From an uncultured Alphaproteobacteria bacterium (GTDB lineage Bacteria; Pseudomonadota; Alphaproteobacteria; Rhizobiales; Kaistiaceae): a DNA stretch of 64,000 nt. This document shows positions 44,507 through 49,513 of the stretch, one piece after another (position 1 is the first letter of the stretch; every line of letters begins with the position of its first letter). The stretch is taken from positions 28,072 to 92,071 of the forward strand of contig CAWHLP010000009.1 of the NCBI GenBank assembly GCA_963830205.1, read 5' to 3'. Position numbers and translations under genes: made by a program. The notes under the pieces are model-generated. The model searched no databases. It worked only from the letters and a program-made list of their open reading frames with translations, and was not told the origin of the DNA.

Positions 44507-45295
44507 TCAGAGCAAAGGTCGTTCCACAAACGCTGCCGCCAACCGCGACCGGTTGTGTGCCAAGTCGTCCGCCGATACCTGCCCGGCGATTCCGGCCAGA
44601 TACTGCGACCAGCGTTCCGTCAGGTCGGCCGCAACGAGGTCGCGGCCCATTGTCAGGTCGGTGCTGAATTCCCTCCATCGCTGAATATTGTGCGCTTGTT
44701 CGGCCTCGCTGGCCTCGCCCCCGTAGCCGCTTATGTGCTGCGTACCGGTGTCCCACCGGTAGATATACGAGGTGCGACCGCCAAGATCGGTCGTGGCAAG
44801 CAGCCCCGCCTCCTCGATCTGCATCATGACGGGATGATCGGTGTATAGCGGATGGGTATCGATCGGAGCGTGCCGCACATATTCGGCCCGGAGAAGCCAC
44901 GAGGGTTCGAGGCGATTGGCGATGCGGCTGAAGGTTGTATTTCGCTCTGAAAACCACGCGGTCGCCGGCTTCCAGGCCATCTTGGTACCGATGTTCTCGA
45001 GGCAATCCTCCAGGTGCCAGGGCAGACACAGATCGTCGTCATCCCACCAATGAATGAAATCGGCGCTCGGATCGGCCAACTCAACCATCCTCTGCTTGAT
45101 GTATCGCAGGGGTTGGGGACCACACTGCTCGTTCACCACCCGGACGCGCGGATGTGTGAAGTTCAGCTCCTGGGGGTGCTGGTTGTAGATCAGCAGCGTC
45201 GCGTTCGACAGCGCCGACTGCGCCAGAAAGCAGGCCAACGCTTCGCTCGCCAGGCCGTGACGGCCGTAGGTCCCCATCAGGCAGTCTATCCGCAT
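44507..45295 (-). CDS. Small glycosyltransferase (GT2-like fold)
   Basis: 262 aa. CLMGTYGRHGLASEALACFLAQS resembles the GT-A N-terminal motif (P-TYNR...l.S.l.Q). Acidic cluster HWWDDDDL. Last gene of the minus-strand unit with the kinase-GT fusion. Confidence 0.65.
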   Translation of the reverse strand: MRIDCLMGTYGRHGLASEALACFLAQSALSNATLLIYNQHPQELNFTHPRVRVVNEQCGPQPLRYIKQRMVELADPSADFIHWWDDDDLCLPWHLEDCLENIGTKMAWKPATAWFSERNTTFSRIANRLEPSWLLRAEYVRHAPIDTHPLYTDHPVMMQIEEAGLLATTDLGGRTSYIYRWDTGTQHISGYGGEASEAEQAHNIQRWREFSTDLTMGRDLVAADLTERWSQYLAGIAGQVSADDLAHNRSRLAAAFVERPLL

Positions 45296-45353: not shown

Positions 45354-47207
45354 TCATTTCGATCCCGCGGGCGTGACGGATTGCACGACGGGATCGTTCT
45401 CGACGGCCGCGACAATGCGCTTCCCAACCTCCTCCCCGAGGTGCTCCTTGAAGTGTTCTCCGATCGGGGCGGTGTCCCATCCGATCTCACGGAACCCGAT
45501 GAAGTAATTGCGAATACGGTCCTCCCAAACGTTGCGGTAGGGGATGCCCATCGGCCGATTGAAGCGGTGAACCCACCTGAGAAAGGGGGCGCACAGCACG
45601 CGTCCGCCGCGCAGCCGGAACTTCTCGTGGATGTACCCTTCCTCGCCGCCGAAGCCGTGAAAGAGCGGGTTGAAGCCCGGCCAGGCGGCGCGCCGGCAGG
45701 CAAACAGACCCAGGCCCTGCATGGGAATTTCAAACGGAGGCGTCTCGGCGTCCGCTGCCGCCTCGTCGACCTCCCATCGTCCGTACATTCCGGATCTCCA
45801 GCCTGGGGAGAAATGGCTCGAGAATGTCTTGAGGCCGTCATAGAGGAGCGGTCCCTGGATCAGGTCTTTGGACTGCGGGTTCCCGGCGAAGTAGGCCATC
45901 AGGCGCGCGATGGCGCCCGGCGCAATCAGCACATGGCAGTCAATGCAAAGGACAAATTCGCCGCTCGCCTCGGTAAAGACGAAGTCGCGGACCGCGGTGC
46001 CTTTCACCTCGGTATTCGGAATATATCGCAGGTTCGGAATCCAGTACTCAAGCGCATACAGCGCCTCGCCGCACGGGCCATCCGGATTGTTGTCCACGAC
46101 GACGAACTCAACGTCCTCAAGGACCTCGGGATGATACATGCGGATGGCCTGGATGGTGAAATAGACGCCATCGTAGTCATCGTAGGTCGCCATCCCGATG
46201 GTCAGTCTCGGCGCAACGTCCGGCTTGGGTCGGAGCGGCGGGCGGGCTTTGGGAATCGCGGCCGGCACCGCCGTTGTGCTCTGCGTCTGGCTCGCTTGCG
46301 CTTGCGCCGCCGCGGTGTCGGTGGCCGCCGCGAAGGCAGCGAACAGGTCGCGCGTCGCGCCCGCATCGAAATTCTGCGCAACGGCCAGCCTGACCAGTCT
46401 GTCGAGAATGCCCTCGAACTGATCGAACCCGCCGTGCGTGACTTCGATGGCGGGAACGCTGCCGGCCAGGCCCTTGAGGAGGTCCAGCCCGTGGTCGGCC
46501 ATGTTGCGCGCGTTGAGGTTGCACTCCATGAGGCGCATCAGGGTCCGGGCCGCCGTCAGCGGTTCGATGCGGAGCTGGGCCGCCTCGACGAAGCGCGGAA
46601 AAACGATGAGACCCGCCTGCTGCGATTGCGATCTGGCGTCCGGAATGGTGATCGCCATGCCGGCTCCTGTGGCCACGGCCGTCGCGTGGATGCTGTCCGC
46701 AAGCAGACTGACGAGCCTGTCCTGCTGCGACTTGGTCAGCAGTGGCCGCGGAAAGGTGACCGTGTTGCGGCCCCCGGTCGCAATGACAATCTCGTCGGAA
46801 AGGAAGGAGAAACCGCGCGCGGCGAACCAGCCCGCCATCGTCGTCTTCCCCGCACCCGTGGGGCCAGCGATCAGGATGGCGCGATTGTCCCAGGCGACCG
46901 CGGCGGCGTGGAGCGCGACGGCATCGTCGACGTCGGTGATGAGGCTGCGCACGACCTGGTCGAGCGCCACATCGAGCGCCAGTTCGGCGCTCGCCCCCCG
47001 CACAACCGGTCGACGATCGACCTGAACGGAGTAGAGCCCCTCGCCATCGTCGCCGATGACGATGAAATGCGATGGCGGCTTCGACGACTCGACGGGACCG
47101 TAGATCAGGTCGACACGGGCCTTCAGGTCATCCGGAAACGTCAGCGCAGACGTGACGTTTCGCAGATCGATCAGGCGCGTGTGCAATTGGCCCTGCGAAC
47201 CGATCAA
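45354..47207 (-). CDS. Fusion protein: HPr-kinase-C-like (HprK-related) P-loop kinase domain + family-2 glycosyltransferase domain
   Basis: N-half LHAAAVAWDNRAILIAGPTGAGKTTMAGWFAARGFSFLSDEIV. An Ala/Thr/Gln/Pro linker. C-half RLTIGMATYDDYDGVYFTIQAI...VEFVVVDNNPDG...FVLCIDCHVL. TTG start 3 nt after the stop of the poly-Thr ORF. Confidence 0.8.
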   Translation of the reverse strand: MIGSQGQLHTRLIDLRNVTSALTFPDDLKARVDLIYGPVESSKPPSHFIVIGDDGEGLYSVQVDRRPVVRGASAELALDVALDQVVRSLITDVDDAVALHAAAVAWDNRAILIAGPTGAGKTTMAGWFAARGFSFLSDEIVIATGGRNTVTFPRPLLTKSQQDRLVSLLADSIHATAVATGAGMAITIPDARSQSQQAGLIVFPRFVEAAQLRIEPLTAARTLMRLMECNLNARNMADHGLDLLKGLAGSVPAIEVTHGGFDQFEGILDRLVRLAVAQNFDAGATRDLFAAFAAATDTAAAQAQASQTQSTTAVPAAIPKARPPLRPKPDVAPRLTIGMATYDDYDGVYFTIQAIRMYHPEVLEDVEFVVVDNNPDGPCGEALYALEYWIPNLRYIPNTEVKGTAVRDFVFTEASGEFVLCIDCHVLIAPGAIARLMAYFAGNPQSKDLIQGPLLYDGLKTFSSHFSPGWRSGMYGRWEVDEAAADAETPPFEIPMQGLGLFACRRAAWPGFNPLFHGFGGEEGYIHEKFRLRGGRVLCAPFLRWVHRFNRPMGIPYRNVWEDRIRNYFIGFREIGWDTAPIGEHFKEHLGEEVGKRIVAAVENDPVVQSVTPAGSK

Positions 47208-47210
47208 GGA

Positions 47211-47597
47211 TCAGGTGTTGGTGGTGGTGGTGGTAGTCGTGGCCGTTGTCACAGTTGTCGAGACCGTGGTCGTGGCGGTTGTGGTCGGCGTCGTCGTGAC
47301 CGTGGTCGTGGCGGTTGTGGTCGGCGTCGTGGTGGCGGTGGTCGTGGCGGTGGTCGTGGCGGTTGTGGTCGGCGTCGTGGTAGCGGTCGTGGTCGCAGTT
47401 GAAGTCGTGGCGGTTGTGGTCGCCGTCGTAGTTGTGCCCGTCGTCGTGCCGGTTGTTGTGGTCGTGTCGAGCGGTGACGCTGCGGCATGCGCGGGGACGA
47501 CGACCCACTCGACAACGGGCTTTTTCCACGCTGCCGGCAGCAGTGCGGCCGATACCGAACCCGCCAGTACAACCAACAATGCTCGACGAGTGGACAT
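47211..47597 (-). CDS. Poly-threonine protein (128 aa): 44-aa N-terminal leader/signal-like region + 84-aa tail that is ~75% Thr
   Basis: ATG 47597 preceded by GGGAG. MSTRRALLVVLAGSVSAALLPAAW (RR + hydrophobic stretch)...PAHAAASPLD, then (TTTX)n with X=A/P/V/G; 63 Thr in 84 residues by my count. Stop is 3 nt before the kinase-GT ORF. Caveat: all frames are open across this repeat. Confidence 0.55.
   Translation of the reverse strand: MSTRRALLVVLAGSVSAALLPAAWKKPVVEWVVVPAHAAASPLDTTTTTGTTTGTTTTATTTATTSTATTTATTTPTTTATTTATTTATTTPTTTATTTVTTTPTTTATTTVSTTVTTATTTTTTTNT
47214..47465. repeat. Imperfect tandem DNA repeats encoding the poly-Thr tract
   Basis: A 33-nt string gaccgtggtcgtggcggttgtggtcggcgtcgt occurs at 47262 and again at 47298 (36-bp period). 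Its 27-nt core recurs at 47352. The whole tract is (GGT/CGT/GGC/TGT)n on the plus strand. Confidence 0.85.
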
Positions 47598-47701: not shown

Positions 47702-48937
47702 ATGGAAAGACATTGGGCCCGGTTCGGTTCGCCTGCGATGACGTCGTCCGACCAGACCTTTGATCTCTTCGGTTCCCTGCTCGGCGAGCTTGGAAGCGGT
47801 GCTGCGTTGCCGGCAAGCAGCAACGACCCGTTCCGAGACCAAATGCGCATCGCCGATCTGATGTGGGAACATGTTCCGGACCAGGCTCACTATCACGGCG
47901 TCGCCCGACTGGTCATGCCGGCCATTGTGCGGCTCGCCGCCGCAACGCAGTCGCCGCGCGCGGCCACCGCACGGCGCAGGCTCACGGCAATTGTTCATCG
48001 GCAGAATGCGGCGGTCGACGCGCGCGAGGAGGCGGTCAGCATCCTGTTGACCGCCATGAAGTCGGCTGGAATACGATTGGTTCTTCTGAAGGGTGCCGCA
48101 CTCGCCCACCTCATATACAAGGCACCCGAGGATCGCCCCTCGCTCGACATCGACGTGCTGGTCGACCGCGAAAACATCGTAGCGGCCGCAAGGGTCGCGG
48201 AGTCTATCGGCTACGTGTTCGCGGATGGGTACGCGTCGGCGTTCACCCCGACCAAGCACCATCTTCCCGAGGCAGCCATATGGACACAGGGCTTCCGCAT
48301 TGCGCTGGAAATCCACGTCGATGCGATGTCTCCCACCCGGCGAGAGCACCTTACGCTCGAGGACCTGAGCGGCCCGCTGCAGGAGGTTGCCCGGACTGGT
48401 GGACCATCGGGTCTGGCGCTTGGACACTTCGACATGCTGCGCCACCTCGCCCACCACACATTCGAGCCGAGCCAGAGGGTACGACTGGTCCACCTCTTTG
48501 ACCTGTGGCGCTATGGTATGCTCCATCTGGACTCGGTCGGTTTGGGTGTCCCCCCTCGCCAGCTTCGGCACATTCGCGTGGCGCACGACCTCGTCGGACT
48601 GGTGTTCAAGGGACCTCAGCCGTCCCCGCAATATCCAATTCCAGCCGGCGTCGGGGAGGGCTTGCTTCCGTTTACGAGCATCGGCCGCGATGCAGACGGT
48701 TTGTGGGTGCGCGCCAGGTTGCTGTTCGCGCCGTCCGAGTGGTGGCTCAGAGGCTTCTACGGCATCCCCCCGGGGCGCTCTCTCGCTGGCGCAACCCTCG
48801 TCCGCCACCCCTTGAACATTGTAGGCTGGGTTATCTCCCGGTACGTCGCAAGGATCAGGCGCATGTTCCGGCGGAACCGGGAGAACGTCACCCGACTCCG
48901 CGTAAGCAAAGGAAAGACCATGAAGGTGAGGCTATGA
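47702..48937 (+). CDS. Uncharacterised nucleotidyltransferase family protein (NTP_transf_5-like)
   Basis: IRLVLLKGAALAHLIYKAPEDRPSLDIDVLVDRENIVAAARVAESIGYVF matches the family hallmark (LKG...Y....R...DIDLLV). Start could also be ATG 47738. Confidence 0.78.
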   Translation: MERHWARFGSPAMTSSDQTFDLFGSLLGELGSGAALPASSNDPFRDQMRIADLMWEHVPDQAHYHGVARLVMPAIVRLAAATQSPRAATARRRLTAIVHRQNAAVDAREEAVSILLTAMKSAGIRLVLLKGAALAHLIYKAPEDRPSLDIDVLVDRENIVAAARVAESIGYVFADGYASAFTPTKHHLPEAAIWTQGFRIALEIHVDAMSPTRREHLTLEDLSGPLQEVARTGGPSGLALGHFDMLRHLAHHTFEPSQRVRLVHLFDLWRYGMLHLDSVGLGVPPRQLRHIRVAHDLVGLVFKGPQPSPQYPIPAGVGEGLLPFTSIGRDADGLWVRARLLFAPSEWWLRGFYGIPPGRSLAGATLVRHPLNIVGWVISRYVARIRRMFRRNRENVTRLRVSKGKTMKVRL

Positions 48938-49242
48938 TGGATGAGGCCCGTTTGTTGGATATCCCTCAGCGGGTCGCCGGCGTGCGCGAGGATCAGGTGG
49001 AGGGCGAGTTGCTCGTTTACCTGCCCGAAGCCACCCGCGCGGTCTTTCTCAACGGTCCCGCCGCAACAATCTGGGGTCTCTGCGACGGATCGCGCACGCT
49101 CGCATCGATGGTCGAACTCCTGGCGGAGTCCTACCCCGAAGCTGCCGACAATCTGGGTGCGGACGTGGTCGAGACAATCGATCAGCTTCGCGCCGCCGGC
49201 ATCATCACGCCAAAGTCAGATCATCTGCCGATCGGCGCCTAG
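48934..49242 (+). CDS. PqqD-family protein (RiPP-recognition-element-like peptide chaperone)
   Basis: 102 aa from ATG 48934 (ATGA overlap with the upstream gene). ELLVYLPEATRAVFLNGPAATIWGLCDGSRTLASMVELLAESYPEAADNLGADVVETIDQLRAAGII fits the PqqD pattern. The stop TAG lies inside the MITE terminal repeat. Confidence 0.8.
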   Translation: MMDEARLLDIPQRVAGVREDQVEGELLVYLPEATRAVFLNGPAATIWGLCDGSRTLASMVELLAESYPEAADNLGADVVETIDQLRAAGIITPKSDHLPIGA

Positions 49243-49513
49243 AGCGCTTCTTGGTCAGATAGAAGCAGTTCCGTTTCTCGACCGGCGAAGCGATCCGGCG
49301 TCGAGATCGGCGAAGGGCGATGCCGGGCATCGGTCGAGCCGGGATCGGCGTCGGGCGCCCGCCGGTCGGAAACCCGAAGGGACGGGTGCTTTTGCGCCAT
49401 TATCGGCGCCGTCGGTCTCGGTCGTACCCCGGGTACGTCCGTCGCCCGCCGGCTTGATCCTGTCGCAAAATCGCTCCGTCGGAACCATTCTATCTGACCA
49501 AGAAACGCTCTAG
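49239..49513. mobile_element. 275-bp MITE-like non-autonomous element with 26-bp terminal inverted repeats
   Basis: Left CTAGAGCGCTTCTTGGTCAGATAGAA (49239-49264). Right end reverse-complements to CTAGAGCGTTTCTTGGTCAGATAGAA (49488-49513), 25/26 identical. No credible ORF inside. CTAG at both tips could be a target-site duplication. Confidence 0.6.

Follow-up and report, generated by a model that had tools for sequence, protein, structure and literature searches.

A gene in a 64,000-nucleotide stretch of DNA from an uncultured alphaproteobacterium (Kaistiaceae; assembly GCA_963830205.1, contig CAWHLP010000009.1, positions 28,072 to 92,071; hereafter the window) joins an HprK-type kinase-like domain to a glycosyltransferase (GT) domain in one polypeptide. 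The gene, on the minus strand at window positions 45354–47207, is a true gene; it encodes both folds with conserved catalytic motifs, and its linkage to neighboring genes of peptide modification holds. We consider it fairly probable that the product is a soluble cytoplasmic bifunctional tailoring enzyme of a leader-guided pathway, akin to those for peptides that are made on ribosomes and modified after translation (RiPPs), in which a peptide or protein precursor would be both phosphorylated and O-glycosylated. Judged from sequence, the fusion is genuine and widespread, and its function is what we infer.

The fusion gene

The open frame runs without interruption for 617 codons from its first TTG, in agreement with the original prediction, which left the strand unnamed. 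The window has a G+C content of 66%, and the codon-position GC of the minus frame (0.66/0.46/0.81) is typical of coding DNA. The plus strand of the same interval can also be read without a stop; that reading is an Arg/Gly/Asp-rich shadow frame, and we set it aside as unsupported. The fusion and its parts are as follows.

45354–47207, minus strand: kinase::glycosyltransferase fusion, whole open frame (frame, codon-position GC, homologue alignment)
46338–47186, minus strand: HprK/PEPCK-fold P-loop kinase-like domain, residues about 8–290 (TIGR04352, PDB profile, AlphaFold2/Foldseek)
46236–46331, minus strand: low-complexity Ala/Thr/Gln/Pro linker, residues 293–324, predicted to be disordered (sequence, AlphaFold2 model)
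45354–46229, minus strand: soluble GT-A glycosyltransferase domain, residues about 326–617 (PF00535, Foldseek, motif alignment)

The fusion is not an artefact of sequencing or assembly, because more than 100 full-length homologues among those listed, with about 95% coverage, and most of 80 loci fetched from other species have the two domains in one continuous frame as well; we saw no stop or frameshift between the halves. The window’s genome carries a single copy.

The start codon requires a correction. The original prediction began translation, with no Shine–Dalgarno (SD) sequence, at the TTG at 47207, and this codon is indeed found 3 nt past the TGA stop of the upstream poly-Thr open reading frame (ORF). 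However, the real start is probably the second TTG, at 47186, seven codons inside the first, since the initiator Met of the homologues aligns exactly with it and the database record of the protein is 610 aa long. This second TTG lies 24 nt past the poly-Thr stop and is preceded, 4–5 nt upstream, by CAGGG, a weak SD sequence. A scan for promoters and terminators returned no more than chance expectation.

The kinase-like domain and the linker

Domain searches detect both predicted halves (NCBIfam TIGR04352 and Pfam PF00535), and from their motifs both look catalytically intact. In the N-terminal half, HprK_rel_A (TIGR04352) matches residues 91–270 (E 3e-21, 75.7 bits), and the key kinase residues are H100, the Walker A motif G115–T122 with K121, D138–E139 and R154; the Walker A sequence, GPTGAGKT at residues 115–122, lies where it had been predicted to within a residue (about residue 114). 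With a profile built from 34 full-length homologues, HprK/P is the best match in the PDB (1ko7, E 7e-4), and H100, the P-loop and D138–E139 align with the His, P-loop and Asp-Asp of the HprK/P structures 1ko7, 2qmh and 3tqf. An AlphaFold2 model of residues 8–305 has a predicted local distance difference test score (pLDDT) of 94, and in a Foldseek comparison of the N-domain model with the PDB all 34 matches with E <= 0.001 (ranks 1–34 of the 50 listed) are ATP-PEPCK or HprK/P. On the evidence of these models, the N-terminal half has the PEPCK/HprK kinase fold. H100, G120, K121, D138, E139 and R154 are invariant in the close family (34–38 homologues), stand-alone homologues included.

The N-domain on its own matched 6,605 cluster representatives. 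Among the best 150, 116 are stand-alone proteins of 240–330 aa and 22 are 450 aa or longer, so that for HprK_rel_A as a wider family it was fair to state earlier that such kinases normally occur alone.

The low-complexity linker that had been noticed between the halves could be placed at residues 293–324. Its residues 306–319 have pLDDT < 50 in the full-length AlphaFold2 model, and its length differs across the family. Most homologues have a semi-conserved I-P-A-P-T-P-R-K directly before the GT domain (alignment columns about 420–435), at which point the window protein reads I-P-K-A-R-P-P. A Thr flanked by prolines is the type of site preferred by polypeptide N-acetylgalactosamine (GalNAc)-transferases.

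The glycosyltransferase domain

Pfam Glycos_transf_2 (PF00535) matches residues 337–444 with 33 bits, above its gathering threshold of 23.3. Motifs can be recognized along the whole domain: YDDYDG (342–347), VVDNNPDG (370–377), D423-x-H425 (D423-C-H425), GFGGEEGY (518–525) and H547-R548. At the sequence level the matches of the N-terminal half of the domain are generic GT2 enzymes: TarP (E 1e-3), chondroitin synthase and TarS. The fold gives a more specific result. The full-length model (pLDDT 86; predicted template modeling score, pTM, 0.56) has 398 significant Foldseek matches in the PDB, of which the best 50 are all polypeptide GalNAc-transferases of family GT27: pp-GalNAc-T10 (2d7i, E 4e-14), GalNAc-T2, T4, T7, T12 and T1, Drosophila PGANT9 and Toxoplasma GalNAc-T3 are among them, each aligned over about 300 columns at 14–20% identity.

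The order of the motifs is also that of GT27: D423-x-H425, then F519-G-G-E-E523, then H547. The family profile aligns GFGGEEGY...LRWxHRF with WGGENFE...SRVGHIY of GalNAc-T7 (6iwq). In GalNAc-T2 the GT27 metal and Gal/GalNAc-transferase motifs are D224, H226, W331-GGEN and H359, and their spacing is similar; by analogy with it, D-x-H would be the metal motif and the downstream His a third ligand. All 80 loci keep the GT catalytic residues unchanged, whereas their kinase residues vary. The fusion protein has no membrane segment, its sole hydrophobic segment being a core β-strand, and no Pfam match in it corresponds to a ricin-type lectin domain. By fold and motifs the GT half is GT27-like, closest to the animal enzymes with which mucin sugar chains begin, yet it lacks several of the marks by which a member of that family is recognized. 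Its fold and motifs appear to be those of enzymes that glycosylate Ser/Thr hydroxyls directly.

Neighboring genes and the precursor

On the minus strand the order is Thr-rich ORF, fusion, 262-aa protein; the divergent plus strand carries the nucleotidyltransferase followed by PqqD.

47211–47597, minus strand: Thr-rich precursor gene, upstream of the fusion, with an RR-containing hydrophobic N-terminus, W-K-K-P-V-V, P-A-H-A-A-A-S and a (TTTX)n tail
44507–45295, minus strand: conserved 262-aa protein with a WWDDDD motif, downstream of the fusion
47702–48937, plus strand: NTP_transf_5 nucleotidyltransferase (PF14907, E 1.8e-24), divergent
48934–49242, plus strand: PqqD-family peptide chaperone, a RiPP recognition element (RRE), its start overlapping the nucleotidyltransferase stop (ATGA)

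A 190-codon ORF at 48941–49513 (plus strand; 190 aa) is Arg/Ser-rich and reads as non-coding; the real gene there is PqqD, in another frame. Within 7 kb of the fusion, the 80 loci contain PqqD in 52 cases, NTP_transf_5 in 31 and a homologue of the 262-aa protein, about 60% identical, in 17. Searches of Pfam, NCBIfam and PDB sequences found no match for the 262-aa protein, which may be a second glycosyltransferase. The window has no signal peptidase I (SpI)-like leader peptidase or MsbA-like exporter in the interval from 36.9 to 54.3 kb; the sole ABC ATPase there has no match to an MsbA-type membrane domain.

Thr-rich ORFs with the same N-terminal region stand near the fusion in 43 of the 80 loci, several of which have two to four copies. 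They share a pattern: R-R-x-[LV]-[LV]-K, a hydrophobic stretch, L-P-x-x-W-x-[KR]-P-[VI]-[VI], [VI]-x-P-A-H-A-x-x-S, and then a variable, mostly Thr-rich tail. At the third position after A-H-A, 69 genuine precursors have Ser (56) or Thr (11) in all but two cases. The window precursor conforms, with W24-K-K-P-V-V and, around a predicted cleavage site, P-A-H-A-A-A-S41. Some precursors (loci L045, L063 and L068) have non-Thr cores starting ...NDPC(T/S).., from which we conclude that the core is variable and the leader constant.

Spread of the fusion and its subclasses

Fusion of the two domains had been treated as exceptional, and this was not borne out. In a search of 5.8 billion protein clusters the full-length query matched more than 1,382, and a scan of one genome per species found a relative in 422 species genomes. 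The best 120 relatives align over about 95% of the query at 44–58% identity and are mostly about 600 aa long. In its sources the protein is annotated as ‘glycosyltransferase’ or ‘hypothetical’ only. Carriers among the Hyphomicrobiales include Bradyrhizobium, Xanthobacteraceae, Labrys, Oricola and Hyphomicrobium; others belong to the Rhodobacterales, Arenicellales, Desulfobulbaceae (including Desulfofustis glycolicus DSM 9705), Binatia and further groups. Both halves are in one frame in nearly all of the 80 loci. The fused form is a large, established lineage and not a singular event.

We classed the 80 fusions by five kinase residues, for which the window protein has the signature H-K-D-E-R. 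This signature occurs in 42 loci, and PqqD lies within 7 kb in 41 of them; the lone exception is a 2.5-kb contig. The remaining 38 loci, with truncated genes or other signatures, have PqqD in 11 cases (Fisher p 2e-11 for the association, uncorrected for shared ancestry). By its sequence, the window gene falls into the subclass that is catalytically intact and linked to PqqD; the function of other subclasses may be different. The signature R-K-D-D-L is found in Labrys, Taklimakanibacter and a Brucella sp., and in Labrys okinawensis the fusion is surrounded by unrelated housekeeping genes. Loci of the altered-kinase subclass (L055, L041, L046, L056 and L066; Labrys, Taklimakanibacter, Brucella sp. 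and Yoonia) have no PqqD, NTP_transf_5 or precursor nearby, nor does the leader profile find a precursor elsewhere in their genomes. The Taklimakanibacter fusion adds a third GT2 domain (1,076 aa). The same leader profile does find a precursor in the window’s genome, in Oricola, in Desulfofustis and in a metagenome-assembled genome of Hyphomicrobium.

Architectural variants of the GT module

Instructive variants were found in which the same GT is joined to other partners. An uncultured alphaproteobacterium (MFD05841; L070:6005-8062) has the GT and part of the linker fused to GalE (TIGR01179, 345 bits, above cut-off). Beside this GalE::GT gene lie a stand-alone HprK_rel_A kinase, PqqD, NTP_transf_5, two more GTs (GT2-TPR and GT4) and a Thr-rich precursor, the leader of which differs (MSEDNPGFKG...AAAANITTTTTT). 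Locus L074 looks like L070. Bearing in mind that L070 retains a separate kinase next to its GalE::GT, the kinase and GT are separable partners within one cluster. The GalE fusion also hints, at the level of domain architecture, that the donor is a 4-epimerized UDP-sugar.

In one relative, PqqD itself is fused directly to the GT (L084:6001-7533, protein P0173, 510 aa). This architecture is the strongest single hint that the GT would act on an RRE-bound peptide.

Many relatives have one or two C-terminal LicD domains; in a protein of locus L001 (L001:7968-11195, P0025) and in other proteins of about 1,050 aa, the kinase–GT pair is extended by two. L001 is the sole LicD-type locus that we examined: a CTP_transf_like cytidylyltransferase gene adjoins the fusion, and a precursor of the same type lies upstream. 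A set of kinase, LicD-family protein and cytidylyltransferase builds the O-glycan of dystroglycan, which the L001 combination recalls; we offer the analogy as an idea only. Another large group consists of fusions of the GT to a GT25 domain at the C-terminus; L085:7001-8449 (P0180, Bryobacteraceae) belongs to it, as do about 50 similar proteins. The L085 gene adjoins that of a 1,669-aa protein with an eCIS_core domain, and no Thr-rich ORF is nearby. Taken together, these architectures describe the GT as a module combined with domains that, by their annotation, present substrates, supply donors or decorate further.

A proposed pathway and its alternatives

We hypothesize that the PqqD protein attaches to the Thr-rich precursor at the W-x-x-P-V motif of its N-terminal region, and that the flexibly tethered HprK-type kinase domain then phosphorylates the precursor, most likely at the conserved Ser three positions after P-A-H-A, by analogy with Ser3, the target of the kinase LppK. 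The GT domain would O-glycosylate the Thr-rich tail from a UDP-hexose or UDP-N-acetylhexosamine (UDP-HexNAc), probably UDP-galactose (UDP-Gal) or UDP-GalNAc, and the NTP_transf_5 enzyme and the 262-aa protein would add further decoration. The product may leave by a general export route, by means of a twin-arginine-type signal that would be cleaved after A-H-A. The gene and its linkages are observed; what we infer is all of the chemistry, the residues that are targeted, the sugar donor and the route of export.

The original prediction had proposed coupled phosphorylation and glycosylation of the same substrate, for example as a phosphoglycosyl decoration. The genomic context favors the first part: PqqD, NTP_transf_5 and the precursor are adjacent, PqqD accompanies 41 of the 42 genes with the window’s kinase signature, and a split variant keeps a separate kinase and GT together. 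Coupling is thus plausible at the level of the precursor. The phosphoglycosyl linkage has no specific support, and the GT motifs are of the type that acts directly on Ser/Thr hydroxyls. The conserved Ser at +3 after P-A-H-A, viewed together with the Ser specificity of LppK (PMC13381572), suggests that the kinase and the GT may target different residues on the same precursor.

A bolder version of this proposal, which we put forward tentatively and regard as possible rather than probable, is that these genes are a bacterial, cytoplasmic counterpart of mucin-type O-glycosylation. The PqqD RRE would present a signal-bearing, Thr-rich product to one polypeptide that phosphorylates a conserved Ser by the cleavage site and covers the Thr tail densely with O-linked Gal or GalNAc, before export by the twin-arginine translocation (Tat) route. 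The recombining GT module, with its kinase, GalE, PqqD, LicD and GT25 partners, would then represent a large unrecognized family of prokaryotic protein O-glycosyltransferases.

Several observations weigh against a leader-guided peptide-tailoring role. The HprK_rel_A score lies far under the curated NCBI cut-off of 200, and the score of the PqqD protein for PqqD_rel_X (TIGR04353) is 15.9 against a cut-off of 35. A pTM of 0.56 means that the model gives no reliable inter-domain geometry. By sequence, the GT half has its best PDB match in the teichoic-acid GlcNAc-transferase TarP, and its similarity to GT27 at this level is not significant (profile E 0.57, to GalNAc-T7, in the C-terminal half). 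Approximately one-third of the fetched loci have no PqqD, NTP_transf_5 or precursor within 7 kb of the fusion, and the leader profile finds no precursor in five such ‘orphan’ genomes; the family is consequently not uniformly tied to a Thr-rich precursor. Finally, Thr could not replace Ser as a substrate of LppK, which makes the poly-Thr tail an improbable site of action for the kinase.

Other roles of the kinase-like domain are conceivable. Whether active or not, it might chiefly serve for docking, by keeping the PqqD–leader complex in place for the GT, with phosphorylation being dispensable. The N-domain does evolve much faster than the GT (22–48% against 56–69% identity), and key kinase residues are replaced in many members (R-K-D-D-L in Labrys and Taklimakanibacter) while those of the GT are invariant. 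We nevertheless think a docking role unlikely for the window protein: it and its 41 closest signature-mates keep the His, the Walker A Lys, the Asp-Glu pair and the Arg, and the same residues are invariant in stand-alone homologues, as noted above. The kinase-like domain could alternatively serve sugar chemistry, either by phosphorylating a peptide-attached sugar, as POMK does on the O-mannose of dystroglycan, or by making a sugar phosphate that NTP_transf_5 activates for the GT. In keeping with such a role, the other partners of the GT are related to donors or glycans (GalE, LicD beside a cytidylyltransferase, GT25), PEPCK, a small-molecule kinase, is no worse a match to the N-domain model than HprK/P, and the literature leaves the functions of LppN and PsmN, nucleotidyltransferases of related clusters, unresolved. 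On the other hand, all characterized HprK homologues from RiPP contexts phosphorylate the peptide itself, and a kinase signature of the window type hardly ever occurs without a PqqD peptide chaperone nearby. Furthermore, PF14907 is described only as an uncharacterized nucleotidyltransferase, which we take to be of the Pol-beta type and not a sugar-1-phosphate nucleotidylyltransferase. We judge the sugar-chemistry role to be quite improbable.

A further alternative dispenses with the peptide altogether: the enzyme would decorate a glycopolymer, such as a teichoic-acid-like polymer, capsule or exopolysaccharide, and the Thr-rich ORF would be unrelated. The best PDB sequence matches of the GT half (TarP, chondroitin synthase, TarS) are compatible with this idea, LicD and cytidylyltransferase partners are typical of polymer decoration, and the orphan copies have no peptide-pathway genes nearby. 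We consider it very unlikely all the same, given that the fusion is free of membrane segments, that the window cluster contains no polysaccharide export or polymerase genes, that the precursor is conserved directly upstream in many species and in multiple copies, that PqqD is fused directly to the GT in one relative, and that the 50 best fold matches are without exception peptide O-GalNAc transferases.

Significance

Our interest in the peptide-tailoring interpretation is that experiments can test it directly and that, if it is right, bacteria would have a new route of protein O-glycosylation. General O-glycosylation systems of bacteria mainly use lipid-linked glycans in the periplasm, or GT4/GT-B enzymes that act on serine-rich adhesins, and RiPP glycosylation is known from just a few glycocins and lasso peptides. 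If the interpretation is correct, bacterial mucin-like glycopeptides would become accessible by an unexplored route, through a soluble enzyme that resembles polypeptide GalNAc-transferases. An RRE would guide this enzyme, an HprK-type kinase would be tethered to it, and hundreds of soil and marine species of Proteobacteria would have it. A function would also be gained for the orphan ‘HPr-rel-A’ cassette, and the GT module might find use in the production of defined O-glycopeptides in E. coli.

Comparison with known systems

The closest described systems are the family of linear polyphosphorylated peptides (LPP) and the related tailoring of lasso peptides. LPP clusters (LppA/K/B/S/D/N) are known from Bacillota (Popov et al. 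2026, PMC13381572). Like the genes described here, which stand together, they combine an HprK-like kinase, a discrete PqqD-type RRE and an uncharacterized NTP-transferase with a linear precursor that has a conserved N-terminal region and a variable C-terminus. The LPP leader carries a [Y/W]xxPx[V/L] RRE motif (PMC13381572), to which W-x-x-P-V/I corresponds in our precursors. LppK polyphosphorylates Ser3 of the core and does not accept Thr (PMC13381572); the comparable position here is the Ser or Thr at +3 after P-A-H-A in 67 of 69 precursors. In both cases the leader is removed by an enzyme of the signal-peptidase type, which for our system is a prediction. Unlike in LPP, the kinase here forms one protein with a GT, no dedicated SpI-like peptidase or MsbA exporter occurs in the cluster, the leader resembles a twin-arginine signal peptide ending in A-H-A, the cores are Thr-rich, and the hosts are Alphaproteobacteria, Gammaproteobacteria, Desulfobulbaceae and others; no kinase–GT fusion, Proteobacteria or Thr-rich core is mentioned for LPP (PMC13381572). 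The NTP-transferase LppN was silent in a heterologous host, and its authors suspect a partner encoded elsewhere (PMC13381572); a GT such as that of the fusion could supply the proposed activity.

In lasso-peptide pathways, kinases of the HPrK superfamily phosphorylate the C-terminal Ser of the paeninodin and pseudomycoidin precursors, and the nucleotidyltransferase PsmN is required for the one or two hexoses carried on the phosphate (PMC8498205, PMC6993621, PMC12639078). Together, PsmK and PsmN give a phospho-hexose (PMC6993621). The likeness to our system lies in an HPrK-superfamily kinase (PadeK or PsmK) that acts on a precursor Ser, and in a PF14907-like NTP-transferase, which the lasso pathway needs for its hexose. 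The differences are that the lasso kinase is a stand-alone protein with the C-terminal Ser as its target, that lasso clusters have no GT-A enzyme, and that no lasso cyclase or B2 protease occurs here.

The ‘HPr-rel-A system’ (TIGR04352 HprK_rel_A with TIGR04353 PqqD_rel_X) is the nearest curated family for the N-domain, and PqqD and NTP_transf_5 are in the cluster; both scores fall under the curated cut-offs, and typical members are stand-alone proteins of about 280 aa. With the GT27 enzymes of animals and Toxoplasma (GalNAc-T2, T10 and T7), the fusion shares the GT-A fold (best E 4e-14 over about 300 columns), the D-x-H, (W/F)GGE and downstream His in the same order, and a presumed acceptor that is Thr-rich and mucin-like. 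It differs from them in that identity is 15–20% with a non-significant sequence E-value, in that it has no ricin-type lectin domain or membrane anchor, and in being cytoplasmic rather than Golgi-luminal and fused to a kinase. Glycocin S-/O-glycosyltransferases (SunS, ThuS, GccA) belong to GT2, are soluble and attach sugars to a ribosomal peptide in the cytoplasm; they use D-x-D, recognize the peptide themselves, are not known to need an RRE and have no kinase domain, and they are absent from the 50 best fold matches of the fusion model.

We came upon no account of the fusion enzyme in literature searches directed at the fusion itself, at ‘HprK-related kinase’ and at bacterial GT27. What is known, then, is peptide tailoring by an HprK-type kinase, an RRE and a nucleotidyltransferase; what is new is the mucin-type-like GT that is attached to the kinase.

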